Source: a virus | Taxonomy: Duplodnaviria; Heunggongvirae; Uroviricota; Caudoviricetes | IMG/VR virus record: IMGVR_UViG_2718218452_000003 | Direction: 5' to 3' (one strand) | Length of the DNA stretch: 35,148 nt | Shown here: positions 332 through 27,532 of the stretch, piece by piece | Layout of the letters: every line of letters starts with the position of its first letter | Numbering within the stretch: position 1 is the first letter of the stretch | Made by a program: the position numbers and the translations under genes | Notes under the pieces: model-generated | The model's input: only the letters and a program-made list of their open reading frames with translations | Databases searched by the model: none | Told to the model about the DNA's origin: nothing

Positions 332-592
332 TTAATTCTGAGATAAGGGCAAACTCATCTGATTGTTCCCCCTGTGTGAAGCTGGCAGAGCCTGCCACGG
401 TATGTCTTCTGAAGAATGAACTTCTGAGGTGTGTTTTGATGTGAACTTATGAAAAGCTTCCAGTGTTGAGAAGCATACGCCGCATTCCAGGTTATTACAC
501 TGGTAATACTTTTGCCGCACGGTGTTTGAGTCATTTTCCGGACGACTGGTGCGGATACGGGCAGACGCGCCACAAAGTGGACAACGGAACAT
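332..592 (-). CDS. ogr: Ogr/Delta-family zinc-finger late-gene transcription activator
   Basis: N-terminus MFRCPLCG...YQCNNLECGVCF gives a C-x2-C-x22-C-x4-C zinc finger typical of P2 Ogr. GGAGG RBS precedes the ATG at 592. Sits beside gpD as in P2. Confidence 0.8.
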   Translation of the reverse strand: MFRCPLCGASARIRTSRPENDSNTVRQKYYQCNNLECGVCFSTLEAFHKFTSKHTSEVHSSEDIPWQALPASHRGNNQMSLPLSQN

Positions 593-1016
593 AGCGACCT
601 CCCTTAACGTGGTGTTTCTATTATTCTAAGTTGTACTAATACTGATTCCAACTAACTGCTTGCTTTGAGTGAAAACCAGAAGTTTGCAGTTGAATTTTCA
701 CTGAGTAAGTAGTCGAGATTGACTATGCACTAGTAGGATTATTCTACGTGATTGAAGGCAACTTGTTGGTATGTAGATGATTTTACTGGTGGCAGTGTTG
801 TAAGTTTTTATCTCCCCGGTTTGTCTTTGACGCTATCTACTAGTTATTTAGTCGTGCTAAAATAAAACGCTGATTGAGTTCCTTTGGGTTAGGTTGATAA
901 CTCTCAGAGACTTTGGGAGGTGTAAGATTCGAACTTAATCGCTAAGTTTCATACTCTTGGCACTCGTTTGCCTCTACAAAAGTATGTTTTTTAACACAAA
1001 TAAAAGAAGTGCATTT

Positions 1017-2429
1017 ATGAGTATTCAACATATAAAAGTTGGCAGTATATCAGAAATTATTGATCTATCATCTAATTCTGGCGAGCATGCTGATTCTCAT
1101 CCTTTTATCCTCTCGAAGAACTGTGTATGGGGAGAACAGGGGGCAGAAATATCAATTGAGAAATTGCGCCAAAATATTGAGCCCTGGCTAACAGCTCTCT
1201 TCCAATCAGAGCATTTAAATTTATTAATCGGTGCAGGCTTAAGCTCGGCTATTCAAAAATCAGCTACAGGTTTATCTCCAGTAGGGATGGGGTGGATTAA
1301 TGATTTAAAAGTATGTAAAAGCGAAATAGATGAATTTTCCACTCAGGCTGCAAAAGCTGCAGGTCGCGACAGAGGAAATATAGAAGACCAAATTAGAACT
1401 ATCAATGAACTTATTAAAGGTCTCGAAATTTTAACGGTGTTAAATACTCCTCAACCAGAAAATCCGCCACCTCCTTATTCTGCTTATAGAAACTTAAAAG
1501 CAGACTTGGGCGAGCTCAAAGGCGAGCTTTCTAGATGCTTGGGGGAGTTTTCTAAATCTATAATTAAAGGAGAATATTTAATCAAAACTGCTGAACCAGC
1601 CCGGAAAGAGGAAACTTTCAACTATCTAGTTAGTTTTTTGATGAGCTTTGCAAGTAGAACTGCCACTCGCGATAGGCTACATATCTTTACAACAAATTAT
1701 GACCGTATTATTGAAGTGGGTGCTGAGCTTGCTGGTTTAAGACTTATTGATCGCTTTGTAGGAAGTATTGCTCCAGTATTTCGATCCTCAAGATTAGAAG
1801 TTGATTATCATTATAATCCTCCTGGAATCCGTGGTGAACCAAGATACTTGGAGGGCGTGGCACGTTTTACTAAACTTCATGGTTCCCTTGATTGGCATGA
1901 ACAAAATAATGCGATTAGGCGCTTTGGCTTACCCTTTGGAGCACGTTCTGTTGAGCCGTTTTTGGAAGCCGAAGGTCATCAAAGCAATGGCTATGAAAAA
2001 CTGATGATTTACCCTAATTCAGTAAAAGACAGAGAAACAGCCGAGTATCCTTATGTTGAGCTATTTCGAGATCTGGCAGCAGCAACTAGCCGTCCAAATA
2101 GCACATTAGTCACTTATGGTTATAGCTTTGGTGATGAGCATATCAATAGAGTAATTGAAGACATGCTTACGGTACCTTCCACTCATATAGTAATAATAGC
2201 CTTTGGCGATCCACTTGGCAGAATTATGCGTTTCATTAGTAATAGTGGAAGAAAAGCACAGATCACCCTTTTAATGGGAGATCATTTAGGAGACTTCAAA
2301 ACTTTAGTTGATAACTATTTACCTAAACCAGCTATTGATAAAGCATCAATCAAGATGGCAGAGTTGCTCAAACAAAGAGGCTTTATGCAGTTCAAAGAGT
2401 TAGGTAATTCAGCCGAAGTTGAGGTATGA
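1017..2429 (+). CDS. SIR2-family (sirtuin-like) NAD-binding protein, putative NADase effector of a SIR2-HerA defence module
   Basis: Translation carries GAGLS (DNA 1230..1244), TTNYD (1689..1703) and KLHGS with the catalytic-type His (codon 1878..1880). Start chosen at ATG 1017; the track ORF begins at TTG 957. Stop overlaps the downstream gene start. Low GC compared with the phage backbone. Confidence 0.75.
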   Translation: MSIQHIKVGSISEIIDLSSNSGEHADSHPFILSKNCVWGEQGAEISIEKLRQNIEPWLTALFQSEHLNLLIGAGLSSAIQKSATGLSPVGMGWINDLKVCKSEIDEFSTQAAKAAGRDRGNIEDQIRTINELIKGLEILTVLNTPQPENPPPPYSAYRNLKADLGELKGELSRCLGEFSKSIIKGEYLIKTAEPARKEETFNYLVSFLMSFASRTATRDRLHIFTTNYDRIIEVGAELAGLRLIDRFVGSIAPVFRSSRLEVDYHYNPPGIRGEPRYLEGVARFTKLHGSLDWHEQNNAIRRFGLPFGARSVEPFLEAEGHQSNGYEKLMIYPNSVKDRETAEYPYVELFRDLAAATSRPNSTLVTYGYSFGDEHINRVIEDMLTVPSTHIVIIAFGDPLGRIMRFISNSGRKAQITLLMGDHLGDFKTLVDNYLPKPAIDKASIKMAELLKQRGFMQFKELGNSAEVEV

Positions 2430-2431
2430 CA

Positions 2432-4465
2432 ATGAGTTATTTACCAATAGAAAAAATAGAACAACTAAGAATTGGAACTGTTGAGTTTGTATCACCTAAT
2501 GAAATTAGGGTGTCTTTAGAGATTGATTCTCCTGATTCAGTATCACTTCAAGGTGGGGCGCCTCGTAATTTTCCTAGAATAAATAGTTATATTTTAATCC
2601 GTAGTGATGACGGGTTTCTTGTTGGGCAAGTTGAGTGGATTGCAATAGAAAACTCGCCATATCCCAAAAGAAGAGGCTTACAAGATTTTGGGTTGATAGA
2701 CCTTCCTTTCCCACTTAAAAAGCTCAGTATCAATCCAGTTGGTACATTGAGAGTTGATAGAAAAAACGAAGGTTTCAGGTTCACGAGAGGAACTGATGCT
2801 TTCCCTTCGGTTGGTGACTCTGTGCTTTTGCCTACTGACCGACAATTACAATCAATAATTGAATCAGGTGATAATAGAAGGGTAAAAATAGGGGATAGCC
2901 CCCTAGCTAACAATGCTGAAATAAAAGTAGACCCCGATAGACTTTTCGGACGACATATAGCTGTTTTAGGTAATACGGGTAGTGGTAAATCATGTTCGGT
3001 GGCCGGCTTAATTCAATGGTCTCTTGATGCTGTTTTACAACAGGGAAAATCTCCAAATGCTCGATTTATAATACTTGATCCGAACGGAGAATATAGTAGA
3101 GCTTTAGGGCCAGAATCAAGATATAAGGGTAAACTATTACGTGTAGAGGCTAACATCGATGTCGGAGAGATGGATCTTAAAGTACCTTCATGGTTATGGA
3201 ATAGTTCTGAGTGGGCTGCTTTCACTCAAGCAAGTTCAAAGGTGCAACTTCCTTTACTACGTCGTGCTTTGAGGGCAATGAGGAATAATCTTCTATCAGA
3301 AGATGATGTGAAAATTCAAGCCAAACGCTTTTGCGGTATCCTTCTTGTATCTATGAGACAGCAGGCAAGTCAAGGTCAGATATATGTGAATAGTGGATCT
3401 GCTAAAGGTTTGGTTGAAACTTTGGGTTCTTGGAGAGATAGTATTTCTATCTTAAACGAGAGAATTGTTGATAAATCGCTCGATAAGCTAATAAACACAA
3501 TAAATACGTATCTTTCTTCACGAAGTGGATCTTCTTGGCCAGCAAAGCCTGTTGTTTCCGAGATTGAGTTGTTGATTAATGGATTTAGAGATGCATATAC
3601 AGCTCTAGGGGGAGATGAACAAGAACTTCTTCCAAAAAGCGAAGATGCGCCTATGCGTTTTAAAGGCGATGATTTTGTCGCATATCTCGAAGCTCTGGCT
3701 CAAGAAACAGGTACAGAACAATTCGTGGAGTTTCTTTTGACTCGTATTCGAACAATGCTAGGTGACACTCGTATTAGTGCAGTAACCAATGATTCTGTAA
3801 AGCCTATAAGTTTAACTAATTGGTTAGACACTTTTCTCGGTAAAAATGAACAAGGATCTATAACTGTTATAGATTTATCTCTAGTACCAAATGAAATAAT
3901 TCATTTGGTAACAGCTGTAATTTCTAGGGTGGCTTTTGAAGCACTACAACGTTATCGAAGATTAAATGGAAGGCCGCTACCAACAGTTTTAGTTGCAGAA
4001 GAAGCGCATACGTTTATTAAACGTTACAAGGAAGATAGTGAAACTCAGTCAGTCTCTGATATATGTTGCAAGGTGTTTGAAAAGATTGCACGGGAAGGAA
4101 GAAAGTTTGGGCTAGGCCTTGTTGTTTCTTCCCAAAGGCCATCAGAGCTATCTCCGACGGTTTTATCTCAATGTAATACTTTTTTGTTGCACAGGATTAG
4201 TAATGATAGAGATCAAGAGCAAGTACATAGACTTGTTCCAGATAATATGAGAGGGCTGTTGAGAGAGCTGCCATCGTTACCATCTAGGCATGCTATTTTA
4301 CTTGGATGGGCTTCAGAACTTCCTGTTTTAGTTAGAATGAAAGAGCTTACTGAAAAACAACGACCGCAATCTGATGATCCTGATTTTTGGGATGTGTGGT
4401 CTGGCACTACAAAAGAACCTCGGAAAGTTAATTGGCAACAGATAGCTGATGATTGGCAAAGTTGA
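2432..4465 (+). CDS. HerA/FtsK-like P-loop ATPase, partner of the SIR2 protein
   Basis: Walker A VLGNTGSGKS (DNA 2969..2992), Walker B-like LVAEEAHTF and an SQRPSE motif, with an N-terminal barrel-like region. GAGG lies 8 nt upstream of ATG 2432; an alternative ATG at 2426 overlaps the SIR2 stop, suggesting translational coupling. Confidence 0.75.
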   Translation: MSYLPIEKIEQLRIGTVEFVSPNEIRVSLEIDSPDSVSLQGGAPRNFPRINSYILIRSDDGFLVGQVEWIAIENSPYPKRRGLQDFGLIDLPFPLKKLSINPVGTLRVDRKNEGFRFTRGTDAFPSVGDSVLLPTDRQLQSIIESGDNRRVKIGDSPLANNAEIKVDPDRLFGRHIAVLGNTGSGKSCSVAGLIQWSLDAVLQQGKSPNARFIILDPNGEYSRALGPESRYKGKLLRVEANIDVGEMDLKVPSWLWNSSEWAAFTQASSKVQLPLLRRALRAMRNNLLSEDDVKIQAKRFCGILLVSMRQQASQGQIYVNSGSAKGLVETLGSWRDSISILNERIVDKSLDKLINTINTYLSSRSGSSWPAKPVVSEIELLINGFRDAYTALGGDEQELLPKSEDAPMRFKGDDFVAYLEALAQETGTEQFVEFLLTRIRTMLGDTRISAVTNDSVKPISLTNWLDTFLGKNEQGSITVIDLSLVPNEIIHLVTAVISRVAFEALQRYRRLNGRPLPTVLVAEEAHTFIKRYKEDSETQSVSDICCKVFEKIAREGRKFGLGLVVSSQRPSELSPTVLSQCNTFLLHRISNDRDQEQVHRLVPDNMRGLLRELPSLPSRHAILLGWASELPVLVRMKELTEKQRPQSDDPDFWDVWSGTTKEPRKVNWQQIADDWQS

Positions 4466-4563
4466 GATGTTTAACCAATTTCCAGTGGGGCTATAAGCAG
4501 TGTCTCATATTTGAGATAGGAAGGAGCTGATTCCTTTCGATTGATACAGTACGAAATTATATA

Positions 4564-4589
4564 TGTCCGCTCTTGGCACAGAGCGGACA
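4564..4589. terminator. Hairpin between convergent HerA-like gene and gpD (9-bp stem TGTCCGCTC/GAGCGGACA)
   Basis: Perfect 9-bp inverted repeat with an 8-nt loop. AT-rich tract on the minus-strand side. Could terminate gpD or cargo transcripts. Confidence 0.4.
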
Positions 4590-4633
4590 GTCAGAAAACT
4601 GAAGGGGGTAGGCGTGCAATACATCTTAGCTGA

Positions 4634-5743
4634 TCAAGCTGTTTCTGCTATCCATTCCGGGATTTTTGCCTCAAGTTCAAGCTGCGTGGTAAAGCCGCTG
4701 TTATCAATGGTGTGCTCGGCTTTTGCAATAATCCAGTCCTGATTATCAATCTCGCTTTTAAATCCTGTTACCGTGCCATGCATTTCGGGGTAGAGTTCTG
4801 CTCGTCCACGTGCCAGCGTGATGGAGAATGATGCGGCTCCGCGTTGTAGTTGTTGCCACTTTGCCGCCGCTGCGCGTCTTGCTGCCTGCTCGTTCTGATA
4901 AGTCTTGCGTAACACAAACACATTGCCTTCCGCGCCTTCCATATAATCACCTTCACGGCTGCTGCTTTTCTCTTTTTTCGGTTTTGGCGGTTTGCGGCGT
5001 TTCACGCTGACTTTTTTCTTTTTCCCGTAATTAAGATCAAGCCAGTAAGCGCGTACCCCCGTATACGACTCGCGGTCAGCAATGCGGAACTGATGGCGAT
5101 CGCCGCTGCTGCGTGTGATGGCGAACGATGGCAACGGCTGGCCCTGTGCGTTCACGCCACCGCCGGGCATGATGAATAACAGATTACCGCTTTTTACTGT
5201 GGTGATTGCGCCCAGCATTTCCGCCATGCGCGTAAGGAAGGACATGTCACTTTCTTCGGTCTGGTCGGCGTGGTCGATTTCGATATCCATCAGCATTTCG
5301 CTGATTTGCGGTTTCAGACCGTACCGATGAGCGATGGCGGATACCACACGCTCAACGGTCACATCATGCCAGGACACCTCACGTTTAACGTTAAATTCAT
5401 CCCGAAAATCTGCGCTTCTGGCTGAAACAGTCAGCCTGTCCGGCGGTCCTTCGTGTGCGATTTCATCAACAATGTAAGTGCCTTTTTCTGTCAGCGGTTC
5501 GCCTTTCCAGCCAATGAGAACCGTCAGGCGCGCGCCCCGTGGCGCTAGCTGCAACTGACCATCCGCATCATCCAGCGTGATGGTGAGCTGGTCCGCCTCA
5601 AATCCCCGGTTGTCGGTCAGTGACAGGGTCATCAGGCGCTCTGCCACGCCTGACAGCGTTTTACCCTCCGCGAGAATATCAAAATCCGGCATTTTCACGG
5701 GGTCTGTGCCCTGACTGAGCAATTGCATGGTGGTATCGGTCAT
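4634..5743 (-). CDS. D: Tail protein D (late control gene D, baseplate hub-like)
   Basis: 370 aa from ATG 5743, with GGGAGGGA upstream. Includes a lysine-rich linker and a C-terminal ...TQLELE region typical of P2 gpD. The track ORF is extended upstream to 5875. Confidence 0.85.
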   Translation of the reverse strand: MTDTTMQLLSQGTDPVKMPDFDILAEGKTLSGVAERLMTLSLTDNRGFEADQLTITLDDADGQLQLAPRGARLTVLIGWKGEPLTEKGTYIVDEIAHEGPPDRLTVSARSADFRDEFNVKREVSWHDVTVERVVSAIAHRYGLKPQISEMLMDIEIDHADQTEESDMSFLTRMAEMLGAITTVKSGNLLFIMPGGGVNAQGQPLPSFAITRSSGDRHQFRIADRESYTGVRAYWLDLNYGKKKKVSVKRRKPPKPKKEKSSSREGDYMEGAEGNVFVLRKTYQNEQAARRAAAAKWQQLQRGAASFSITLARGRAELYPEMHGTVTGFKSEIDNQDWIIAKAEHTIDNSGFTTQLELEAKIPEWIAETA

Positions 5744-5900: not shown

Positions 5901-7085
5901 ATGAGTGAAACTCGTTTTCATGGTGCCCGTGTTACGGAAAATACCGACCTGGTAACAGCGATTAACGATGTTGATTCCAGCGTTATCGGTATCGTGGCAA
6001 CGGCGGATGATGCGGACGCGAAGCTGTTCCCGCTGAACAAGCCCACATTGCTGACCCGCGTCAATGACGTGCTGGGAAAATGCGGAACAACGGGGACGCT
6101 TTATCGTGCGCTTAAGGCCATCGCAGACCAGGTGAGCACAAAGGTGATCGTCGTTCGCGTGGCTGAACACAAAGAAGAAGACGGAAAGACGCAGGATCAA
6201 CTGGTTATCGGTGGTTCTGAGGATGACGGCAGCTATACGGGGATGTATGCGTTGCTTGTTGCAGAGCAGGATGAAAGCATCGGATACCGTCCGCGTATTC
6301 TGGCCGCGCCGGAGCTGGACACGGAGGCTGTAACAAAATCCCTGTGCGTGATTGCAGGTAAACTGCGCGCGTTTGTGTATGCCTCATGTCACGGCTGTAA
6401 CACGATGGCTGAGGCGATTACCTATCGCCAGAAATTCAACGAACGTGAGGTGATGCTCTTATGGCCGGACTTCATCGCCTACAACCCGAAAAGTGGCAAA
6501 AACGAAACGTTCCCCGCGCCTGCCTATGCGTGCGGCCTTCGTGCGTACATTGACCATGAGCAGGGGTGGCACAAATCACTGTCCAACGTTCCGGTTAAAA
6601 ATGTGCTGGGGATGTCGAGGCATGTGTTCTGGTCGTTGCAGGCCGAAGACAGCGATGCCAACAGCCTCAACAACAAAGAAATCACGACCATTATTCGTCG
6701 CAACGGGTTCCGCTTCTGGGGCAACCGCACACCGGAAACGAACGCCTACATCTTTGAGGTGTATACCCGAACCGCACAGGTGCTGGCTGATTCAATTGCG
6801 GAAGCGCAGTTTGAAACCATCGACAGTCCACTGACGCCTGCGAACGTGAAGGATGTTATCAGTGCCATCAGGGCAAAACTGGATTCGCTGGTTACTGCCG
6901 GGAAACTGATTGGCGCGGAGTGCTGGTATGACGTGGTGGATAACGGCACCACGGATTTACGTCAGGGGCGTGTGCGTATTCGCTACAAATATACGCCCGT
7001 TCCGCCACTGGAAGACATGGAGCTTTACCAGACGTTTACTGATGAATTCTTTGGTCCCGCATTTGCGGTGCTGGGAGGTGCCTGA
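5901..7085 (+). CDS. FI: Tail sheath protein FI
   Basis: 394 aa. Conserved sheath blocks such as FPLNKP, LRAF, WPDF, DQEQGWHK-like and RRNGFRFWGNRT match recalled P2 FI. Confidence 0.9.
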   Translation: MSETRFHGARVTENTDLVTAINDVDSSVIGIVATADDADAKLFPLNKPTLLTRVNDVLGKCGTTGTLYRALKAIADQVSTKVIVVRVAEHKEEDGKTQDQLVIGGSEDDGSYTGMYALLVAEQDESIGYRPRILAAPELDTEAVTKSLCVIAGKLRAFVYASCHGCNTMAEAITYRQKFNEREVMLLWPDFIAYNPKSGKNETFPAPAYACGLRAYIDHEQGWHKSLSNVPVKNVLGMSRHVFWSLQAEDSDANSLNNKEITTIIRRNGFRFWGNRTPETNAYIFEVYTRTAQVLADSIAEAQFETIDSPLTPANVKDVISAIRAKLDSLVTAGKLIGAECWYDVVDNGTTDLRQGRVRIRYKYTPVPPLEDMELYQTFTDEFFGPAFAVLGGA

Positions 7086-7597
7086 TGGCTGTACCAAAAC
7101 ATCTTCGCTTTTTTACGTTGTTTGTGGATGGTGAAAACGAAGTGGGTAAAGTGACATCCGTCACGCCGCCCAAACTGACGCGCAAAACCGACAGCTATCG
7201 TGGTGGTGGCATGATGGGGGCGGTAAGTATTGATCTCGGTCTGGACGACTCCGCGCTTGATGCGAGTTTTGTTATGGGGGGGGCTGTTCGTGCGCTGTTC
7301 CTTAAATATGGCGGCACGATTGACGGCACGCTGCTGCGTTTTGCGGGTGAATACTACACCGATGCAGAAAGCGATCTGTATGAAATCGAGATGCGCGGAC
7401 GTGTGACGGAAATTGATATGGGGGAAGCCAAACAGGGCGAAGCCACATCACACACTTACGCTGTCAAAAACACCTACTACAAGCTGAGCGTTAACGATCG
7501 CCCGCTGTGGGAAATCGACCTGTTGAACCACATCTACCGGAAGGACGGCAAGGACATTGTGCCTGACCGTATCCGTTCCGCGCTTGGGCTTGGCTGA
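7085..7597 (+). CDS. FII: Tail tube protein FII
   Basis: 170 aa. Start overlaps the FI stop (TGATG). Contains PPKLTRK...YRGGGM and GEAKQGE blocks like P2 FII. Confidence 0.9.
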   Translation: MAVPKHLRFFTLFVDGENEVGKVTSVTPPKLTRKTDSYRGGGMMGAVSIDLGLDDSALDASFVMGGAVRALFLKYGGTIDGTLLRFAGEYYTDAESDLYEIEMRGRVTEIDMGEAKQGEATSHTYAVKNTYYKLSVNDRPLWEIDLLNHIYRKDGKDIVPDRIRSALGLG

Positions 7598-7652
7598 TAA
7601 GTAATATGCAGGCGGCGCAGTGCGTCGCCTCTGACTGAAAAGGAGACAACTG

Positions 7653-8027
7653 ATGAAAGACATCGATACTGAAACCCGGAATAACACCGTGGCGGATGAT
7701 GTGACGGCAGGTGAGGATATGGCTGTCGAACGTGGCGTAAAACTTTCCCGGCCAATTGAGCGTGGTGCCGAAAAAATCACATATGTGGAAATCACCGGGG
7801 CTATTGAGCAGGCGGGATCCCTGCGTGGTCTGTCGCTGTCTGATGTGCTGAATCTGAAAGCGGATACCATGTTCACGCTGTTGCCTCGCGTGACCTCGCC
7901 ACGACTGGATGAAGTGATGATTAAAAAAATGTCGTCACGCGATTTTATTCAGTTGTGCGCTGTGGCTGTAAATTTTATGAGCGAGCCAGACTCTGGCGCG
8001 AAGAGCGTGCAGGAGACGGCAGCGTAA
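7653..8027 (+). CDS. E: Tail assembly chaperone E (zero-frame product)
   Basis: 124-aa ORF in the conserved position between the tube and tape-measure genes. Confidence 0.75.
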   Translation: MKDIDTETRNNTVADDVTAGEDMAVERGVKLSRPIERGAEKITYVEITGAIEQAGSLRGLSLSDVLNLKADTMFTLLPRVTSPRLDEVMIKKMSSRDFIQLCAVAVNFMSEPDSGAKSVQETAA

Positions 8028-8191
8028 TTACCCTGGTGTGCTTTGAGCACATCGAAGATCTGGTGGCGGATATTGCCGCCATTTTTAACTGGTCGCCCGC
8101 CGAAATCTTCATGATGACGCCCGGCGAAGTGGTTAGCTGGCGTGAGCGGGCGGCACTTCGCAGCGGGAATGTAGATAATGAAGACTCTTGA
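7653..8191 (+). CDS. E': E+E' tail chaperone fusion made by programmed -1 frameshift at A-run 7923..7929
   Basis: A run of seven A at 7923..7929 in the E frame (ATT AAA AAA ATG). The -1 frame is open from 7925 to the stop at 8189..8191 and overlaps the T start. This mirrors P2 E/E' and lambda G/GT. Confidence 0.65.
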
Positions 8192-10985
8192 TATCCGGGT
8201 CGCTTTCAGCGCCGTTGACAGGCTGACCCGGCCTGCCGAAAACGCCCGCCGCCTGATGGGGCAGTTTGGTGACTCCATCCAGCGAACGCAGGGGGCGATC
8301 AAAAATCTCGAGCGTCAGGCGCGTTCATTTGAGCGCGCCCGTGACGCTGTCAGTAAAGCGGATGCGGGCATCGTGAAAGCACGACGCCAGCTTAACGCCC
8401 TTAATCAGTTACAACGCACGGGTACAGTGCTCAGCGAAAAACAACAAAAGCTGATGCAGCAGTTAAGCACCCGGCTTGAACGCCTGAATGAATCGCGCAC
8501 ACGGGAAATTCAGAAAATGCGGGAGCTTGGCGGAGAACTGAAACGCCACGGCATTTCCCTGACAGGCAGCGATAACACCATTCAGCAGGCCATCAGACGC
8601 ACCGAACAATACAACAACCAGCTTGAACGCGAACGGCAGGCGCTTGCGCGTGTAACGCGGGCGCGTGAGCGGTATTCGCGCGCGCAGGAAACAGCGGGAA
8701 AACTGAAAACAGGTGGTGCGCTGGCAATTGGTGCGGCAGCGGCGGGCGGCTATGCTGCCGGGCGTTTTTTGCAGCCTGCGATCGGGTTCGGGAAAGAGAT
8801 GTCCCGCGTTCAGGCACTGACGCGAATCGACAAAAACAGCCCGCAGTTTAAGGCGCTGCGTGAGCAGGCGTTAAAACTTGGCTCTGAAACGCAGTTCACC
8901 GCAGGCGATGCCGCCAGTGGGCAGGCATTTCTTGCAATGGCTGGCTTCACACCGCAGGCCATTCAGGCTGCGCTCCCTGGCGTACTGAGCATGGCAACGG
9001 CTGGCGGTATGGACCTCGGTGAGACGGCGGATATTGGCTCAAATATTCTGACGCAGTTCGGTCTTTCTGCTGACCAGATGGACCGGGTCGGCGACACACT
9101 CACCGCAGCGTTTACCCGTACCAACACTGACCTTCGCGCACTGGGTGAAACCATGAAATATGCAGGTCCGGTGGCGGGTAAGCTGGGAATATCGCTGGAG
9201 CAGGCCGCAGCGATGGCGGGCGTGCTGGCGAATATGGGTATCAGGGGGAGTGATGCTGGTACGGCAATGCGTGCCAGCCTGGCTCGTCTGGCATCACCGC
9301 CAAAGGCGGCAGCAGAGGCGCTGAAAGAGCTTGGCGTGTCTGTCTCGGATGCCGGGGGCAAAATGCGCCCGATGGAGGATGTGCTGGCTGACCTTTATAA
9401 AGCTACCCGCAAATACGGGGAAGTTGACCGGGTATCGTTCTTTAAGGACATTGCCGGAGAAGAGGCTTTCACATCATTTATGGCCCTCGTTGATGCGGCA
9501 GGTGACGGCTCCTTACCCAAACTGAGAAAAGAACTTGAAGGCGCGCGCGGTGAGGCTGAACGCACGGCAAAGGTTATGGCCAACAACCTTGACGGCGATC
9601 TGAAATCACTCAGCAGTGCATGGGAAGGGTTGCGCATCCGCATTGCAGATCTGATTGACGGTCCGCTGCGTTCTGTCACGCAGTGGCTCACGCGTGTGGT
9701 ATCAAAGGTGACGGCGCTGGCGCAGGCCCATCCCGCACTGACGCGCCAGCTACTGATTGCAGGCGGTGCACTGCTGGCAATGACTGCAACGGTTGGCTCG
9801 TTGTCGCTGGCTATTGGTGTGTTTGCTGGCCCGCTGGCAAAACTGCGTCTTGGTTTTTCCCTCCTGACCGGATCAATGAATGCTGTCAGGGTTCTGCCAG
9901 CACTATGGGGAATGGTGACGGGTTCCGTTTCTTTACTGGGAGGCGCTATCGGGGCGTTGTTCAGTCCGGTTGGTCTTATCGTGGTTGCGCTTGCCGGAGC
10001 TGCCGTTCTTATCTGGAAATACTGGGATCCCATCAGGGCATTTTTTGCCGGAGTGTTCAGCGGGATTATGGAAAGGCTGACCCCGTTGCGCGAAACCTTT
10101 GAACGGTTTGGTCCTGTTTTTGACGCAATCGGGAGTGGGATCAGCCAGGTGTTTAACTGGTTTAAATCGCTGCTGTCACCGATGGAGTCCAGCAAGGAAA
10201 CTCTGGATAAATGTACCAGTGCTGGCGAGATATTCGGTAACGTTCTTGGCGGTGCGTTACAACTTGTTCTGACACCTGCAAAAATGTTGCTGGATACGCT
10301 GGCGTGGATACTTGAAAAGCTTGGTGTGCTTCCGGATGAAGCGGAAAGGGCGCGCAAGAAAATCGAAGACGCACAGCGTGCGGCCATTCTTCAGGACAAG
10401 GTTGCCTTGCTTCAGGGGGACCTGGCGAAAATCAATCCGCCGAAGCCTGTGGAAAATGGCAATGGCACCGGAGGTGATAACCCCAAAGACAATAAACTGC
10501 TCACAGACAGCAATACCGGTACGCTGCGCAGACTCAGCAAAATTGCTGATAACACAGGTAAGCTGGTTGATGAGACGAAAAAACGCATTGGCCCCGGCGA
10601 TATTGTCTTTAAGAACCTGCCCCGCGCACTTGCTGTTCGTGGGGAGTGGCAGGAGCGGAAGATTGCACAGGTCAGTAAGCCTGCTTCCGCAATCAACATC
10701 ACACCTGTGGTCCCGGCTCCGCTGCCTCCGGCGCTGGTCCCTGTTGTTGCGGCCAGCTCCCGCCCGGTGGCGGAGGCCATACGATCGCCAGTGGCATCAG
10801 TTCCTGCAACTTCCCGTAACCGGGAGCCTGCTGTCTCCGGATTTTGCGGTGAAATTCATGTTCATCTGCATAACGTTGTTACGCAGAATCCCCGCGAACT
10901 GGCGAAACTGGTCGGTGAAATGGTCAGGGCAGAAATGGAACGGCGCGCCCGTGCCGGGCGTGGCAGTTTTTACGATAAAGATTGA
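8178..10985 (+). CDS. T: Tail tape measure protein T
   Basis: 935 aa. Coiled-coil N-terminal region, Gly/Ala-rich hydrophobic central segments, in the conserved position after E/E'. Confidence 0.9.
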   Translation: MKTLDIRVAFSAVDRLTRPAENARRLMGQFGDSIQRTQGAIKNLERQARSFERARDAVSKADAGIVKARRQLNALNQLQRTGTVLSEKQQKLMQQLSTRLERLNESRTREIQKMRELGGELKRHGISLTGSDNTIQQAIRRTEQYNNQLERERQALARVTRARERYSRAQETAGKLKTGGALAIGAAAAGGYAAGRFLQPAIGFGKEMSRVQALTRIDKNSPQFKALREQALKLGSETQFTAGDAASGQAFLAMAGFTPQAIQAALPGVLSMATAGGMDLGETADIGSNILTQFGLSADQMDRVGDTLTAAFTRTNTDLRALGETMKYAGPVAGKLGISLEQAAAMAGVLANMGIRGSDAGTAMRASLARLASPPKAAAEALKELGVSVSDAGGKMRPMEDVLADLYKATRKYGEVDRVSFFKDIAGEEAFTSFMALVDAAGDGSLPKLRKELEGARGEAERTAKVMANNLDGDLKSLSSAWEGLRIRIADLIDGPLRSVTQWLTRVVSKVTALAQAHPALTRQLLIAGGALLAMTATVGSLSLAIGVFAGPLAKLRLGFSLLTGSMNAVRVLPALWGMVTGSVSLLGGAIGALFSPVGLIVVALAGAAVLIWKYWDPIRAFFAGVFSGIMERLTPLRETFERFGPVFDAIGSGISQVFNWFKSLLSPMESSKETLDKCTSAGEIFGNVLGGALQLVLTPAKMLLDTLAWILEKLGVLPDEAERARKKIEDAQRAAILQDKVALLQGDLAKINPPKPVENGNGTGGDNPKDNKLLTDSNTGTLRRLSKIADNTGKLVDETKKRIGPGDIVFKNLPRALAVRGEWQERKIAQVSKPASAINITPVVPAPLPPALVPVVAASSRPVAEAIRSPVASVPATSRNREPAVSGFCGEIHVHLHNVVTQNPRELAKLVGEMVRAEMERRARAGRGSFYDKD

Positions 10986-10991
10986 GGAGTC

Positions 10992-11486
10992 ATGGCCATG
11001 ATGATGATCTATGGCATGTTTGTTTTTGAGCTGCGCACGCTGCCGCATCAGCAGTTACAGCAAAACAAAAGCTGGCGGCATGTGAAAAATGAACGCGTTA
11101 ACCGTTCAGCAAGCTGGCAGTATATCGGTGCAGGTGATGATCGCATCGTTCTTTCTGGTGTGCTTTATCCTGAAATTACAGGTGGCGAAGTGTCGCTGTC
11201 GCTGCTGACCACGCAGGCGTATACAGGACGACCCTGGCCTTTGATTGATGGCGTCGGGCAGATTTACGGCATGTATGTCCTGACCGGAACGAATACGATC
11301 CGTTCCGAGTTTGATCGCTACGGTAAGGCGAAAAAGATAGAATTTTCACTGACCCTTGAACGCTGTGATGAGGATTTGCGGGAGCGCCTGCAATCCTCAT
11401 CGTTCAGCGATATGCTGTCCGGCTTCAAAGATAAGGTGGCGTCATCCCTTAACAGTGCGGTCAGTTCTGTTAAGGGACTGTTCTGA
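10992..11486 (+). CDS. U: Tail protein U
   Basis: 164 aa following T, with GAGGAG RBS. N-terminal FVFELRTLPHQQLQ...SWRH resembles P2 gpU. Confidence 0.85.
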   Translation: MAMMMIYGMFVFELRTLPHQQLQQNKSWRHVKNERVNRSASWQYIGAGDDRIVLSGVLYPEITGGEVSLSLLTTQAYTGRPWPLIDGVGQIYGMYVLTGTNTIRSEFDRYGKAKKIEFSLTLERCDEDLRERLQSSSFSDMLSGFKDKVASSLNSAVSSVKGLF

Positions 11487-12094: not shown

Positions 12095-14154
12095 ACACTC
12101 GATACGTTATACCATGTACCATTAATATTTTTTTGAATTGGTCTGTAATAAACACCACCAATATTATCGGCAGAGTTTGAGCCTGTATCCTGAACGATAA
12201 TCCCGGTATATGCGCAACCAGATGGAGCCTGATGCGTCCATGTTGTACCGTTATTTGCTGGTTTATAGGATGACGCACCACCAAGTCTAATATCCCGGAC
12301 ATAGCGTGAATCAAAGTTGCCATAGTTAGATGGTGATACCTGCCCGTTAACAGCAAAAGTGATGCTGTTATCTGTATTTCTCTGACTGTAAAAATGCCAG
12401 CCTGCATCATCACCTAATTCAGCCACCACCGGACGACTTGCGTTTCCCCACAAATTGAATGCGGCTTCCTTCGTGGATGTATTGCTGCTGCTGACCGTGA
12501 ACTTTTTCCCGCTACCGGCACGTACTTTGGTACTTGAGACAATATCACCTGTAACACTCAGGCCATGCCCCATTGACACTCCGCCATTGGCGTTATTGAT
12601 AGTCAGCGGTCTTAAGCCGTTCCATGTCCCAAATTTATCGCCAGAGGCCGTCAGCATTAAATATGTGCTGCCGCCATCATTCCTGATAAAGAATCCATAA
12701 TTGCCATAAGCAATGCGCAGACCATTAGCACTGAGTGATGTAATCTCACCTCTTGAACGGAGACCATAAGCGGAGCTGAGTGATAATTCTTCCTGAGCGT
12801 CATAGTTTCCTGTCGCCCAGCGAATTACCCCGCCCTGTACTGTTTCATGCCAGATAGTGTCTCCTTCTCCACCACGAAACTTTCTGAGATATTTTTTGCC
12901 GCCTCTGGTGCCTGAACATAAGGCCGTAGACATATAGGCATTCTGGCTTCCGCCATCCTGATTAATCGTTCCGGTCATTGAGTCGCCCTGACGATTCCAG
13001 TCACGACGCCAGCCGGGGGAGTAGCCGTCCCCATGATTAATGTAAGTGAATTGCGCGCTGGTTGTACCGCCACCACTTGATGTTGTCGGCGTGGTCACTC
13101 GGATAGTGATTGCAGATTTAGTTCCCATGACCTCGACGACACAACCAGCCAGGTGGATATCACCACATCCGGTATCCGTAATGATTTTGTTATTTGCATA
13201 TGACCATGAGCCTTTGCACATCCAGTACGGATGATTAAATGCACCACGGGAATCCAGCCATTCAATAAACTGAGCGGTTGTCCAGTTTCCGGCTTCAGTG
13301 CTCAAAGCGCCGCTATAAGCACGACAGGCACCGATATTTTTCGTGAAGGTATCCTTTCCCGGAATATCCGCACCGTTCTGATCTTTCTGAAGACGTTTTT
13401 CAGCATTGTCATAGGCAGACTTCACCGCTTTTGATGTTGCGGCCAGCGTTTCAGAATCACTGTTGGTGGCGCTACTGAGCTGGACAAGACCTTTTCGCGC
13501 TGTAGTGGCATCCTGTGCAGTGTATTTCCCGTTAGCAAGGTCATAGGCTGCCTTGACCGCTTTCGGCGTTGCGGCCAGTGCTTCAGACGTGCTGTTGGTG
13601 GCGCTACTGAGTTGAACAAAGCCTTTTGCGGTCAGCGAGGCGTCCGGGTGACGTCGTGACTGTTCATGTTCTTTCAGTTTGTCATTCACGTAATCCACTG
13701 TGGCCATAACCATGGTGTTATCCACGGTAAGCGCCACGGTGGCAGTGCTGGATACGCTCAGAATGGTGCGAAATGTTTGTGCACGTCCGGATCCTTCGGC
13801 AACGGCTGGCTTGTAACTTTCGGCAGTATTGCCCACCGCGATTAAATCGCCGTGCTCATCAAATACACCAATTTCCCGGATCCAGAATCCGCCCGTTTCA
13901 GGAGGAATAACCAGCTCCGCAATAATGCGGTTCTGATGTGTTGCGTCCAGGATGACGCGATTAACAGTATGTCGCCACACCTCATGCACCAGACGGGTCT
14001 GCTTACTGTCTGGTGTGGGCAACGTGCCGCCACCGTCGCCCACGGCCATGTGAGTCAGGCGGACAGGATTACCATCTGGCGCGGCTGCCTGAGCTAATTT
14101 TTTGGCACCCGTATCGGTGATAACGGTTTTAAATTTTCGTGTTGTGGTACTCAT
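12091..14154 (-). CDS. H: Tail fibre protein H
   Basis: 687 aa. Conserved N-terminal baseplate-attachment region, internal tandem KGxVQLSSATNS...KAVKxAYD repeats, Gly/Ser-rich distal domain. Confidence 0.85.
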   Translation of the reverse strand: MSTTTRKFKTVITDTGAKKLAQAAAPDGNPVRLTHMAVGDGGGTLPTPDSKQTRLVHEVWRHTVNRVILDATHQNRIIAELVIPPETGGFWIREIGVFDEHGDLIAVGNTAESYKPAVAEGSGRAQTFRTILSVSSTATVALTVDNTMVMATVDYVNDKLKEHEQSRRHPDASLTAKGFVQLSSATNSTSEALAATPKAVKAAYDLANGKYTAQDATTARKGLVQLSSATNSDSETLAATSKAVKSAYDNAEKRLQKDQNGADIPGKDTFTKNIGACRAYSGALSTEAGNWTTAQFIEWLDSRGAFNHPYWMCKGSWSYANNKIITDTGCGDIHLAGCVVEVMGTKSAITIRVTTPTTSSGGGTTSAQFTYINHGDGYSPGWRRDWNRQGDSMTGTINQDGGSQNAYMSTALCSGTRGGKKYLRKFRGGEGDTIWHETVQGGVIRWATGNYDAQEELSLSSAYGLRSRGEITSLSANGLRIAYGNYGFFIRNDGGSTYLMLTASGDKFGTWNGLRPLTINNANGGVSMGHGLSVTGDIVSSTKVRAGSGKKFTVSSSNTSTKEAAFNLWGNASRPVVAELGDDAGWHFYSQRNTDNSITFAVNGQVSPSNYGNFDSRYVRDIRLGGASSYKPANNGTTWTHQAPSGCAYTGIIVQDTGSNSADNIGGVYYRPIQKNINGTWYNVSSV
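13409..13645. repeat. Tandem imperfect repeat (2 x ~105 bp, period 132 bp) inside tail fibre gene H
   Basis: Plus-strand text tcataggcagacttcaccgctttt...ggtggcgctactgag recurs 132 bp later with a few substitutions. Encodes the duplicated 44-aa fibre motif. Confidence 0.7.
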
Positions 14155-14720: not shown

Positions 14721-15576
14721 AGCGCGCCGCCTGTATGTCGCTGATGGCCATATTTTGTGTGGGTTCGATTATCTCCACGCGTTGCACACCGTGCACATGC
14801 AGTGCGGCAGCAATGGCTGACAACGCCACATCCTGACCGATAAGCCCCTGCTCAGACAGCCACTTCCTGAACGACGATTCCGCCGCGGCCAGAATAGGTT
14901 CGGATTCCGGGCCGGGGTAAAAGTACAGTTTTGCATTCAGCCGCCATGTCACGATTCTGGCACTCTGTACGGTCAGGCGGTCGGCCACCGGGCGGGTATC
15001 CTCTGCATTCAGAACGGCGCGAACGGTATTAAGCAACGCCTCCGTTGCTGTGCCGTCGCCCTCAGTGGACAGGATGGAAACCGTCACGTTGGCCGGAGAC
15101 GGGCTGATGGCCCGCGCATCGCGTACCAGACCGCTGGCGCTGCGTGCAAAATACTCGTATGCACCTGACGGGCCAGCAACACTCAGACCGTCATATGCCC
15201 GTTGCGCCCGTAGTCTCAGCGAGGTGTCACTTTCCATCACTGCGTCGGTGGTATCCGTTGCCGGAGTGATAACCAGGCGCTTTGTGTTCATATTGCCCGC
15301 GAGGTTGTCCAGGTCTGTCCCGGCGCTGTGGCTTAGCATGCAGGCGCGTGCACCCTCATTGACCCGCTGGCGTAACAGCATTTCACGAAACGACATGGTT
15401 TGAGCGATAACGTTAAGGGGTTCCGATTCCAGCTCCAGCGCGGCGGAAACGGCTTCACGCTGTTCGGCGGGATAGGACGCAATCATCATGGCCTTTGTGT
15501 CAGCCAGAATTGCCTCAAAGTCAGGCTCCGCGATGATGGCGGGGTCCGGTAACTGTGAAAGGTCAACGGCAGGCAT
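14680..15576 (-). CDS. J: Baseplate assembly protein J
   Basis: 298 aa; position and size match P2 gpJ. Confidence 0.85.
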   Translation of the reverse strand: MPAVDLSQLPDPAIIAEPDFEAILADTKAMMIASYPAEQREAVSAALELESEPLNVIAQTMSFREMLLRQRVNEGARACMLSHSAGTDLDNLAGNMNTKRLVITPATDTTDAVMESDTSLRLRAQRAYDGLSVAGPSGAYEYFARSASGLVRDARAISPSPANVTVSILSTEGDGTATEALLNTVRAVLNAEDTRPVADRLTVQSARIVTWRLNAKLYFYPGPESEPILAAAESSFRKWLSEQGLIGQDVALSAIAAALHVHGVQRVEIIEPTQNMAISDIQAARCESFTISEGGRNE

Positions 15577-17149: not shown

Positions 17150-17600
17150 CCCACGTCACATCCTGGAATACATGCGACCAGTCGCCTTCGGAAGATGGCA
17201 GGCGGGGTTTTGGCTCAGGCAGGTGTTCTGCCTGCGGTGTGCCCTGACTGCTGCGCGTGATGCGAACGCGTTCCCGCAGGGGGAGCGTAAACAGGAGATC
17301 GGCGCTGTCATCGTCATTGATAACGGCGGAGAATTTGATGTCCTGATTACGCTCCGGATTGAGCAACAACTGTGGCTGATTTTCGGATAACCACGCCAGT
17401 AGCGGCAGCGTGAGGTCGTCCAGCTCCCCGGCGTAATCCATGACAAACATCACCATCTGATAGCGGTAAACAAACGAGGGCGTTTCTCCGGTCGTTTCAA
17501 TGTTGCCGCTCTCCACGAAAATGGTGAATTTTTCCGGGTTGGCCTGACACCATCGGCATGAACGGGTCATGGCTTCACGCAGGGAATCAGTTTTCAGCAT
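17133..17600 (-). CDS. R: Tail completion protein R
   Basis: 155 aa; same size and position as P2 gpR after the lysis genes. Confidence 0.8.
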   Translation of the reverse strand: MLKTDSLREAMTRSCRWCQANPEKFTIFVESGNIETTGETPSFVYRYQMVMFVMDYAGELDDLTLPLLAWLSENQPQLLLNPERNQDIKFSAVINDDDSADLLFTLPLRERVRITRSSQGTPQAEHLPEPKPRLPSSEGDWSHVFQDVTWGESDG

Positions 17601-25390: not shown

Positions 25391-25413
25391 GGGGCATAAA
25401 AAATTTATGCCCC
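25391..25413. terminator. GC-clamped hairpin immediately downstream of Q (stem GGGGCATAAA/TTTATGCCCC)
   Basis: 10-bp perfect stem with a 3-nt loop. No clear U-tract follows, so it may be a terminator or a packaging-region structure. The cos site is expected nearby by synteny but was not identified. Confidence 0.4.
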
Positions 25414-25787
25414 GACTCTCCAACTCCTGTATCAATCAGATAATTTCACGACGTCTTCCAGCTTATCGCCATCATCGACGGTCAGGCTCTTACGCAATCC
25501 CACTGCGCTGACTGCATGTTCTCGCCGCCTCAGTGCGATTTTGACGGCCTTATCTGCTACCCCATCAAATCAAAAGTCCTCACGTCTTTTTCATGCTCAG
25601 CGTGAGAAATACAGCCATTCTGTTGTGTCGCTGCGACATCGTTCAGGGGATGCTATTTACCCCCTGAAACGCGGGCTGTTCCCCCGTCACCTGCGCGCAG
25701 AAAAAACGCGTTTTTTTGTGCACGCACGGATCCTTGACGGATCCAGTCGCCACGCGGGCCGGAAGGGTAAAAAGTTGTTCAAAAAAA

Positions 25788-25826
25788 TTGTGCAAATTTG
25801 TGCACTATTGTGCGGTGTATAAAATG
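25788..25826 (+). promoter_or_regulatory. Candidate promoter/operator of the toxin-antitoxin operon
   Basis: Three direct repeats of (A/T)TTGTGC at 25788, 25798 and 25808 with a 10-bp period, followed by a -10-like TATAAAAT at 25819..25826, about 60 nt upstream of the antitoxin start. Confidence 0.45.
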
Positions 25827-25887
25827 AAAATATGGCGGTGTTATTACTGCCCAACAAGCCGTTATACTTACGTTATGGGCGTGCATA

Positions 25888-26244
25888 ATGGAAATGAATA
25901 TGAAAACTGTAACTGATGATGAATTTCGTGAGAACCTGAGTGAAATTCTGGATTACCTTTCTTCCGGTGGCAGTGTCGTTATCACGGCGCAGGGAGGGAA
26001 GGATGTTGTTCTTGCTGGTTCTGATCTTAGTCCTGAAATACGGGCTGTCCTTGGCAAAACCAAAAAACTGCGGGATCAAATAAACAAAATGAAGCAACCA
26101 CTCTTAATAAATGCAGTGAGAGATCTGGAAAAACGTCATCCAGCTCTTGTCGCACAGAGAAAAAAAGGATTGTCTTTTGAAGATGCAATGAAGCGTACAA
26201 GAGAAAAACATGCGGATATCATTAAAAAGCTTGAGGATAACTGA
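25888..26244 (+). CDS. Phd/YefM-like antitoxin
   Basis: N-terminal region FRENLSEILDYLSSGGSVVITAQGGKDVVL fits the Phd/YefM fold pattern. Stop overlaps the toxin start by 1 nt. Alternative ATG starts at 25894 and 25900. Confidence 0.6.
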   Translation: MEMNMKTVTDDEFRENLSEILDYLSSGGSVVITAQGGKDVVLAGSDLSPEIRAVLGKTKKLRDQINKMKQPLLINAVRDLEKRHPALVAQRKKGLSFEDAMKRTREKHADIIKKLEDN

Positions 26245-26651
26245 TGGACATAGTGTTTTTGTCAAAAGAACAAGTAGAACGTATCCATGCTGAAACTTTA
26301 CCCCAGAGCGGAAATGCCAATGACGGGCTACTTGAAGGTGCTTTAAATCGCGTCAGGACACTACACTACTATGAAGGGGTTGATGATATTCATGCTCTGG
26401 CTGCTATGTATTTGATTGGTATAGCCAAGGCTCATGCCTTTCATGATGGGAATAAACGCACAGCTTTTCAGGCTGCATCAATATTTTTAATGATGAACTC
26501 TTCCGAACTTTCAAACTCCCTGCTGCTGGTTAAATTAACGGTGTTTTCAGCAATGGGGATAGCTACCCTTGAGGAAGTTACCTTTGCTTTGAAATTGCTG
26601 TCTGATTATGGCAATGAATTAATCAGCGACTACGAAGAAGATTATATTTAA
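26244..26651 (+). CDS. doc: Doc/Fic-family toxin
   Basis: 135 aa with the Doc-type Fic motif HAFHDGNKRTA. Coupled to the upstream antitoxin. AT-rich. Confidence 0.75.
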   Translation: MDIVFLSKEQVERIHAETLPQSGNANDGLLEGALNRVRTLHYYEGVDDIHALAAMYLIGIAKAHAFHDGNKRTAFQAASIFLMMNSSELSNSLLLVKLTVFSAMGIATLEEVTFALKLLSDYGNELISDYEEDYI

Positions 26652-26817
26652 TGCTGGCATACTCTGTCGTGTTAAGACAACAGCCTTTGCGGAGACAGGG
26701 CAGGGTGCCAGACTTGCCCGCAGCGCGTCTGACATGAGCAGTTATTCATCTTTTTTATTGTTTTTCTCCATGCAGGGCGACAGTGCGCCCCGATAAAATT
26801 AAAAGCCGTCAAATTCG

Positions 26818-27153
26818 TCATTCATGCGTTTTTTCTTCATGGTCTGTCACTTCTCTCCTGATAACTTCATTGCACAAATCAACGCACTCATTGCAGATGT
26901 AAACAGACGGTCCGGCAATCACCTTTGTGACTTCGTACTGGGATTTATTGCAGAAGCTGCAATAAATCGTCTCCTCACCTGAAGTCCATGTTTTGCTGGT
27001 TTCGCCAGACATCAGTTGTTTGAGGTCTTTTTCACGACGAAGAACTATCTGGCCACATTCAGCTATTTTTTGGATGTTGACATTTTCTTCTTTCGCCAGC
27101 GCTTCCATCCGCTCAATCAGTCGCTGCGCTTTTTCTCTGTCAATGCGTTGCAT
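26818..27153 (-). CDS. ClpX-type zinc-finger (C4) domain protein with N-terminal coiled coil
   Basis: C-terminal [35 protein letters not shown] matches the ClpX N-terminal zinc-binding domain (C-x2-C-x18-C-x2-C). No AAA+ module. GGGGG RBS. Confidence 0.7.
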
Positions 27154-27216
27154 TGTGTCCCCCTTGTTTATGTTCCCGGGTTAAAGTCATCAGGGCGGAT
27201 GCGCACTGATGTTGTG

Positions 27217-27528: not shown

Positions 27529-27532
27529 TGGT

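Follow-up and report, generated by a model that had tools for sequence, protein, structure and literature searches.

The stretch of DNA analyzed here (the window; IMG/VR virus record IMGVR_UViG_2718218452_000003, 35,148 nucleotides) is a P88-like prophage in which an AT-rich island of about 4 kb separates the tail gene D (protein gpD) from ogr, the gene for the late-gene activator. This island carries a SIR2-HerA gene pair and occupies a slot that in relatives is either empty or filled with other cargo. Comparison with sister loci makes it likely that this foreign cassette of ~4.0 kb sits in the shell of an IS481-related element lacking a transposase, within which the cargo has been swapped. 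Its content is a known kind of defense system in a known kind of hotspot; we found no description of this position in this lineage. Features are listed in Table 1, and comparison loci are designated by L numbers.

The initial annotation, made from the letters of the window, had described about 4 kb of AT-rich DNA between the ogr start (592) and the gpD stop (4634). Profiles of GC content and of GC at third codon positions (GC3) agree, confirming the island as an observation, and its interpretation as cargo is supported. In 500-nt steps, GC is 0.37–0.41 across positions 501–4500, compared to 0.49–0.60 in most of the backbone; the island (633–4623) has a GC of 0.391, against 0.533 elsewhere in the window. 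GC3 is 0.28 for SIR2 and 0.25 for HerA, against 0.57 for D and 0.61 for the sheath gene (range 0.57–0.61, or about 0.6, for D, sheath and tape-measure genes). Since further AT-rich patches occur at about 11.5–12.5, 26–27, and 32–34 kb, low GC alone is not unique to the island. Its limits, previously placed at 593 and 4633, are narrowed to 632–4623 by comparison with empty sites. Homology to phage P88 (L001) and to the empty site L015 stops at 632/633 and is back at 4624–4639; for P88 it runs up to 632 and again from 4639, with just 7 bases between. Read as an inserted element, the island would span 632–4623, about 4.0 kb. Its two large open reading frames (ORFs) lie on the + strand and run counter to D and ogr, as had been noted. 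The leader proposed at 593–956 indeed lacks an ORF of at least 40 amino acids, but the untranslated stretch reaches 1016, with an ATG at 1017.

We compared the D-ogr interval across relatives, using site censuses that are samples rather than complete counts and a cargo catalogue drawn from fetched representatives of occupied sites. The flanks match about 1640 of 5426 complete Escherichia coli genomes. Sampling E. coli genomes at even intervals yielded 15 empty sites, 15 with cargo, and 5 that were unclear, and IMG/VR gave 79 informative loci (46 empty, 33 occupied in 11 size classes). Empty sites have 40–48 nt from the D stop to the ogr start (P88, E. coli prophage L015, Salmonella, and two Symbiopectobacterium) and represent the ancestral state of the slot; the spacing is 40–43 nt in P88 and in roughly half of the sampled related prophages. 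The flanks of occupied and empty sites are 92–98% identical. We catalogued 21 cargo types with common breakpoints, SIR2-HerA and 20 others (Table 1), at least 11 of which (single genes or gene pairs) are unmatched in the PADLOC library. Cargo genes are found in both orientations, 25 cargo proteins showed no pairwise similarity (blastp, E<1e-5), and the last D codons vary along with the cargo. The D-ogr interval is a variable slot for unrelated, often defense, cargo: it is small, has a conserved phage gene on each side, and is enriched in known defense systems. As the initial annotation had anticipated, relatives carry differing cargos, or none, at the same junction; they do not all share the same genes with backbone-like composition.

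For all cargos, homology breaks at the same two points, and common non-coding sequence lies just inside. The two ends are mutual inverted repeats (TGTAyTAGCTCAGA... and ...TCTGAGCTArTACA) bracketed by the direct repeat TCTAAGT. Read towards ogr, the ogr-side consensus is ...GCTCAAAGCGGAcTGTCAGTTGGAgTCTGAGCtAGTACA/ACTTAGAATAGC...ATG, holding TTGGA, 17 nt, and TAGAAT. The D side consists of the hairpin GTCCGCT..AGCGGAC, about 55 nt, and then ...GTCTGAGCTAATACA/TCTAAGT/TGC TCA, where TCA is the D stop on this strand. In most D-ogr cargos, the ogr-side end has lost ~35 nt between its two GTCAGAT repeats.

These ends belong to a wider family, in which inverted repeats of ~88 nt (TGTATTAGCTCA...TACA, with termini 5'-TGTA...TACA-3') are accompanied by 7-bp target duplications, and each repeat contains two GTCAGAT repeats and the GTCCGCT..AGCGGAC hairpin. 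Searching IMG/VR with the 15-mer GTCTGAGCTARTACA returned at least 120 loci; among the matches listed, 96 of 120 have in common a long conserved element whose end coincides with the 15-mer, about 24 of 120 are chance matches, and five carry D or ogr homologues. Many matches have an inverted partner 0.6–5.6 kb away and perfect 7-bp direct repeats that differ between sites (CATAAGC, CTATATC, CATTAAT, TCTTATT, AATAATT, TATTATA, and AATAAAC). Such perfect duplications were found at at least eight sites other than D-ogr and at three copies of an insertion sequence (IS) described below. Apart from being AT-rich, the duplications of different sites have nothing in common in sequence, and therefore insertion is not strictly site-specific. 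At the level of sequence, the ends are homologous and target duplications accompany the family elsewhere.

The elements at other sites carry PDC-S31, TIR-TM, PDC-S51, and PD-T4-9 components, a DUF4365 nuclease, DUF3800, and SMEK; one carries sulfatase, FadL, and MscS genes. Among 24 proteins of these elements we detected no DDE transposase and one Phage_integrase match, in a degenerate element, and the window element contains only the SIR2 and HerA genes and no transposase. A related transposase is found in a 1201-bp IS, for example L197:6063-7263 (also in L166, L207, L107, and L151), which encodes a 346-aa IS481-family protein (L197:6165-7205; NF033577, 2.9e-85). This IS shares its terminal ~27 nt with the elements and is flanked by perfect duplications (GGTGAAT, TCTTAAT, ATTGATT). 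Full copies occur in 77 E. coli genomes, and about 3200 have partial matches. Given the 7-bp duplications and the IS481-family transposase, integron attC sites, dif/Xer, invertase sites, and Tn7/Mu ends were dropped as possible frames. The family resembles mobile insertion cassettes and IS derivatives of the miniature inverted-repeat type in its IS-like inverted repeats, fixed-length duplication, passengers, and missing transposase. It differs from mobile insertion cassettes in that the passengers are mostly phage-defense genes and the hosts phage genomes, and from the 1201-bp IS in its structured ends of ~88 nt, of which just the terminal ~27 nt match.

Members of the family also occur in other settings. 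A 2110-bp element in the chromosome of E. coli GON1437 (L225:6985-9094) has both ends intact (E 5e-19 and 6e-23) and the duplication TATTATA; it lies among orphan modules downstream of a two-partner-secretion gene of the contact-dependent inhibition type, so the family is not confined to phages. A 616-bp mini element with the duplication AATAAAC, whose only ORF encodes a 131-aa lipoprotein-like protein, is found at L108:4344-4959 and at some 30 further loci of IMG/VR, where it sits in phage contigs close to tRNA genes and to the small RNA STnc100. A second slot exists in a more distant P2-like lineage (L105:1158-4113, L143:3607-5311, L121, and L201), where different cargos share the CATAAGC duplication and homologous flanks just downstream of a conserved gene, before a terminator.

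An end profile built from eight elements outside D-ogr matches the D-side ends of D-ogr loci over 86–88 positions (E 1e-15 to 3e-7). In L008, which carries a YecA cargo (1779 bp, duplications TCTAAGT and TCTAATT), both ends match (9.6e-15 for the ogr-side end, which is full-length there, and 4.5e-10). Matches at D-ogr were also obtained in L100 (1.4e-15), L007, L014, L009, L099, and L022, while the window's own gpA-gpQ hotspot and the empty sites gave none. In the window, 4561–4595(-) on the D side matches profile positions 53–87 in a small search (E 6.7e-7), and the inner repeat and hairpin remnant on the ogr side, 650–686(+), is found in a 644-nt search (E 6e-4).

Several observations nevertheless weigh against descent of the window copy from such an element. 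The end profile has no match in the window at normal thresholds. Compared to sister loci, the D-side end has a deletion of ~40 nt and its terminal ~50 nt are mostly gone. The duplication is preserved at 6/7 positions in L008, L005, and L013 but at 5/7 in the window. The element ends and the IS ends are alike only in their terminal ~27 nt and differ further in, and the conservation of the ogr side could simply reflect a role as promoter. The proposed transposon origin of the window copy rests on its sister loci.

The most likely history, judging from the pattern of ends and duplications, is a single insertion followed by exchange of cargo. One old insertion into TCTAAGT would have founded the slot; the cargo would later have been exchanged by recombination, with homology provided by D and ogr on either side and by the conserved ends. 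All D-ogr cargos share the TCTAAGT duplication, and within the terminal 25 nt all carry a change specific to this locus (CAGTTGGAG, compared to CAGATCAAG or similar at the other ends listed). The slot with the CATAAGC duplication follows the same pattern, which speaks for one old insertion per site. A live rival, although we consider it unlikely, is that each cargo arrived separately by repeated insertion into the same 7-bp target, through target-specific transposition or site-specific recombination. This would fit the presence at D-ogr of both full-length (L008, L096) and internally deleted ogr-side ends, as well as the DUF2971 element found at another site with another duplication, which is 78% identical to the one at D-ogr. 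The repeats flanking fun in P2 have also been read as site-specific recombination sites, in a passage of PMC8987985. However, the duplications at other sites reveal no shared target, and the TTGGA change common to the D-ogr cargos sets them apart from the other ends listed. Right-hand duplication copies among D-ogr loci have diverged by up to 4/7, suggesting age rather than recent repeated insertion.

The ogr-side end may also have acquired a regulatory function. The predicted ogr promoter is split, with its -10 in backbone DNA and its -35 within the end of the inserted element. Across the 21 cargo types the -10 (TAnAAT) is near-invariant, TTGG is present at the -35 in 17, and the spacing is fixed; at the -35 position, empty sites have just ATAGCA or TAGCAG and no comparable -35. 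Several IS families, IS481 in Bordetella among them, are known to carry outward-facing -35 elements. The classic layout of IS hybrid promoters combines such a -35 in the IS end with a -10 in target DNA, and the arrangement here resembles it. In the proposed mechanism, the element's -35 (TTGGA) would pair with the phage -10 (TAGAAT) and drive transcription of ogr, which the insertion would have severed from read-through out of D. The late activator thus appears to be under a predicted promoter to which phage DNA and the inserted element each contribute one half.

On the D side, the hairpin noted in the initial annotation at 4564–4589 is present with a stem of 10 bp rather than 9 and a 6-nt loop, and corresponds to the subterminal hairpin of the putative element end. 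Its folding energy is -19.8 kcal/mol on the + strand and -18.8 on the - strand (z-score about -4.8 to -4.9), and none of 200 shuffles was as stable. The hairpin is terminator-like on the - strand, where it would end D transcription and bound the cassette. A terminator in the RNA of the left end was considered and rejected, as the - strand fold (z-score -0.8 to -0.4) was no better than shuffles. Rfam gave no match at gathering thresholds anywhere in the window (sok fell below threshold, and nqrA-II was at chance level in the leader), and the conserved ends matched no known RNA family in Rfam.

The presence of a plausible promoter and terminator raises the question of whether the ends are mobile-element remains at all. 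D-ogr might be an ordinary hotspot kept by homologous recombination in D and ogr, its ends being conserved as a selected promoter and terminator. The -35/-10 pair and the strong hairpin each have a plausible function, the last D codons co-vary with cargo as expected for whole intervals moving by flanking recombination, and the ends in the window are too decayed to be recognized alone. We consider this explanation improbable. A profile from outside sites matches the D-side ends over 86–88 positions, with E values reaching 1e-15, which is beyond the needs of a terminator. In L008 the two ends are still inverted repeats, with a 6/7 duplication, and the same ends, which resemble IS481-family termini, bound elements with perfect 7-bp duplications at unrelated phage and chromosomal sites.

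The two genes of the cassette constitute, by homology, a SIR2-HerA system with intact catalytic motifs. They are adjacent on the same strand, as in the operons of SIR2-HerA systems, separated by a 2-nt gap or overlapping by 4 nt if the alternative HerA ATG at 2426, across the SIR2 stop, is used. SIR2 keeps TTNYD at residue 225 (N227) and KLHGS at 286 (H288), motifs that are also present in chain 8j4u_A. HerA keeps a Walker A motif (GNTGSGKS) at 180 and a Walker B motif (VAEEAH) at 521, aligned with 9c1m, its best structural-chain match (E 2e-48). The ATG at 1017 is favored as the SIR2 start because it is the PGAP start and because nucleotide similarity to two related modules sets in at 974 and 990 of the window. 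The pair resembles SIR2-HerA (Nezha; 8J4U/8SU9) in its adjacent genes, NADase and Walker motifs, and top PADLOC models, and differs from the solved Nezha pair in being distant in sequence. A relative with 80% nucleotide identity lies directly after traN in an integrative and conjugative element (ICE) of the SXT/R391 type (L018:7028-10482), and another with 85% identity adjoins tRNA-Phe (L017:7043-10491). On these grounds, together with GC of 0.39 against 0.53 and GC3 of 0.25–0.28, the cassette is assigned a foreign origin. As a separate observation, a hairpin like the element's inner end lies ~350 nt upstream of the tRNA-Phe relative (E 5.7e-4, small search).

The system was reportedly named 'SIR2+HerA' by Gao and colleagues in 2020. 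Published E. coli SIR2-HerA systems act through NAD+ depletion and abortive infection (PMC13434337, PMC11514289, PMC11472057). They have been split into eight clusters, with abortive-infection defense described for Nezha and types I–III (Zhang et al., 2026; PMC13434337). By homology with these studied systems, the pair in the window probably provides anti-phage defense. A lysogen would express the predicted system from the cassette's own leader, and the HerA ATPase and SIR2 NADase would assemble into one complex, as in systems of this kind, where a SIR2 dodecamer joins a HerA hexamer. An infecting phage would set off this complex, leading to destruction of NAD+ and an aborted infection, such that the lysogen population, with its prophage, would be shielded from other phages. 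Counting against this picture, similarity between the solved Nezha SIR2 and the window SIR2 covers residues 171–412 only (E 3.6e-21), a modest match that marks a divergent subtype; the pair is best placed as one among the divergent E. coli clusters rather than Nezha. A strict promoter scan of the leader likewise yielded no + strand promoter. Candidates in the leader include an extended -10, TGcTAAAAT (855–863), and TTGGCA-17-AAGTAT (957–985). Leader positions 660–1000 have no similarity in E. coli beyond this cassette (14 genomes).

It is conceivable, but doubtful, that the cassette is silent or non-functional, a decaying passenger of this prophage. Decay of the element ends, the failure to find a strong + strand promoter, and an IS lying inside the SIR2 gene of two related isolates would fit this reading. 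Yet both ORFs of the window are full length with their motifs intact, and the identical cassette is present in 14 of 5426 E. coli genomes, each time at D-ogr, with at least 99.7% identity across various hosts and countries; defense pseudogenes are, moreover, rare in P2-like hotspots (PMC13586616). The interrupting IS in those two pig isolates (NZ_CM149870.1, NZ_CM149862.1) is ISVsa5, providing a natural knockout. That the pair is ancestral to the phage lineage and was lost in some relatives, as its identical position in 14 genomes might suggest, is already refuted by the empty sites, including those of distant Salmonella and Symbiopectobacterium relatives, and by the 20 unrelated cargos at the same point, with SIR2-HerA in only 14 of about 1640 flank-bearing genomes and strongly foreign composition.

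The same type of end was detected in P2 itself. The end profile matches both sides of fun(Z), at 15293–15362(+) after G (E 6.6e-8) and at 17428–17494(-) before pF (E 1.3e-8), corresponding to 2294–2363 and 4429–4495 in locus L227. A weak end remnant is located between tin and old (L019 11562–11621, E 2.7e-4). The D-ogr slot thus has the same frame as the fun(Z) cassette but is at another site and in another phage lineage. Inverted repeats next to fun were reportedly noted by Nilsson et al. (2004), who took them for recombination sites; the review that summarizes this work (PMC8987985) states that they 'enable site-specific recombination'. Evidence that the D-ogr and fun(Z) slots share the ends of one IS481-related, transposase-less family with 7-bp duplications is one of two things added by this analysis. 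Such a family, which also links many other phage and chromosomal sites, offers a concrete possible origin of hotspots, and a way in which defense genes could be swapped as rapidly as has been reported without a mechanism. More tentatively, P2-like hotspots (Z/fun, D-ogr, and probably others) could all have been founded by one family of such cargo transposons. In that case the ~88-nt ends might serve as portable homology arms or transposase substrates that shuttle defense genes among phages, islands, and chromosomes, with one end co-opted at D-ogr as the promoter of the late activator.

The window backbone is P88-like rather than that of P2, which the initial annotation had taken as its reference. 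Its flanks match Escherichia phage P88 and other Xuanwuvirus (Peduoviridae) at 93–97%, and the window is 99.8% identical to an E. coli C7 prophage located between btuC and ihfA. The tail block FI-FII-E-T-U (5901–11486, +) is inverted relative to P2 with respect to D (4634–5743, -). A P2-type D-ogr query matched 1582 genomes with at least 80% coverage. D and ogr were contiguous in every full-length match of a spread sample of about 45 (1489–1513 bp), consistent with the tight junction expected for P2, and the hotspot is therefore specific to the P88-like lineage. The proposal of a third insertion point thus holds insofar as the slot is variable, but it applies to this lineage, as the sampled P2-type sites include no occupied one. 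A scan of genome contigs with Ogr yielded 5 loci; two of these, one under the label Vagococcus and one from a Planococcaceae metagenome-assembled genome, have Ogr and D 93–98% identical to those of the window and are probably contamination. The slot is empty in the Salmonella and Symbiopectobacterium relatives.

Defense hotspots described in P2-like phages include gpA-gpQ (old/tin; Rousset, 2022; PMC9122126) and G-FI (Z/fun; Vassallo, 2022; PMC9519451). Further named sites are int-att, int-gpA, 'tail genes/downstream of GpL', and 'between a tail protein and CI' (PMC13586616, iLund4u preprint). D-ogr is like these hotspots in being a small, AT-rich locus between two conserved genes, with rapid turnover and known defenses, and differs in its position and its restriction to the P88-like lineage. 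In the surveys (PMC9122126, PMC9519451, PMC13586616, and the iLund4u preprint) the site is unnamed and 'ogr' is absent; it may have been lumped under 'downstream of GpL/tail genes' or 'between a tail protein and CI'. Our search of the literature for the end sequences, or for IS481 together with defense, found nothing. Bounded by the D stop and the ogr start, D-ogr is an easily anchored hotspot and, like old/tin and Z/fun, a source of candidate defense genes. The catalogue of 21 cargos, at least 11 of them outside the defense library, is the other addition of this analysis.

Table 1. Features of the D-ogr region of the window and cargo types found at D-ogr sites.
Feature	Position	Strand	Basis or remark
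ogr, late-gene activator, 86 aa, left anchor	332..592	-	Pfam Ogr_Delta 4.4e-14; zinc finger ogr/Delta-like in E. coli C7
Predicted sigma-70 ogr promoter	623..651	-	-35 TTGGAA (651-646), 17-nt spacer, -10 TAGAAT (628-623)
Left copy of 7-bp target duplication, TCTAAGT	625..631		Single copy in empty sites (TATTCTAAGTTGCTCA), both sides when occupied
Putative ogr-side element end, terminus TGTACTAATACTGA...	632..686	+	12-cargo alignment; ~35-nt internal deletion compared to full-length ends
Cassette-specific leader, no ORF of at least 40 aa	687..1016	+	ORF lists; 660-1000 known only with this cassette
SIR2-family NADase gene, 470 aa	1017..2429	+	PADLOC SIR2 PDLC04079 3e-155; Pfam SIR2_2
HerA-family ATPase gene, 677 aa	2432..4465	+	PADLOC HerA PDLC04098 1.9e-252; Pfam DUF87
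Putative D-side element end, decayed, terminus ...GCAATACA (4616-4623)	4561..4623	-	Inner repeat and hairpin, then ~30 nt
Right duplication copy, diverged, TCTTAGC	4624..4630		5/7 compared to TCTAAGT; sister loci TCTAAGT or TCTAATT
gpD, tail/baseplate hub, right anchor	4634..5743	-	Pfam Phage_GPD 2.2e-17; PGAP start in C7
Cargo: SIR2-HerA	D-ogr	+ in window	PADLOC
Cargo: Thoeris ThsA/ThsB	D-ogr		PADLOC 6e-203 / 3e-70
Cargo: PifA-like KAP NTPase	D-ogr		PADLOC 2.6e-64, Pfam
Cargo: bSEFIR/TIR protein	D-ogr		PADLOC 1.4e-44
Cargo: PDC-S31 (DUF2971)	D-ogr		PADLOC
Cargo: GmrSD_N+HNH protein (GmrSD-like)	D-ogr		Pfam
Cargo: GapS6a and 930-aa protein	D-ogr		PGAP name; Pfam HetE-N
Cargo: HxsDBCA	D-ogr		PGAP name
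Cargos: two different PIN proteins	D-ogr		Pfam PIN_4 and PIN_12
Cargo: alpha/beta hydrolase	D-ogr		Pfam
Cargo: SEC-C/YecA protein	D-ogr (L008)		Pfam, PGAP
Cargo: DUF3800 protein	D-ogr		Pfam
Cargo: ParA-like protein	D-ogr		PGAP name
Cargo: 340-aa protein	D-ogr		Weak Pfam HEPN match
Six cargos of 1039, 487, 478, 386, and 221 aa and a 188 + 134 aa pair	D-ogr		No family match

Other features of the prophage were recorded outside the island. Between ogr and the prophage end beside ihfA lies an ORF for a Hok/Gef-type toxin (1–141, -), and a sok-like antisense RNA is found at 128–287 (-; Rfam RF01794, 50.2 bits, under the gathering score of 59). The gpA-gpQ hotspot, at the old/tin position (25400–28500), contains phd/doc (25888–26651, +), a ClpX-type zinc-finger gene (26818–27153, -), and a parM-like partition gene (27533–28492, -). 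The 157-nt region from which D and FI are divergently oriented must contain two late promoters. Finally, a repeat in the tail-fibre gene (13408–13630) differs in copy number from that of the 99.8% identical C7 prophage.

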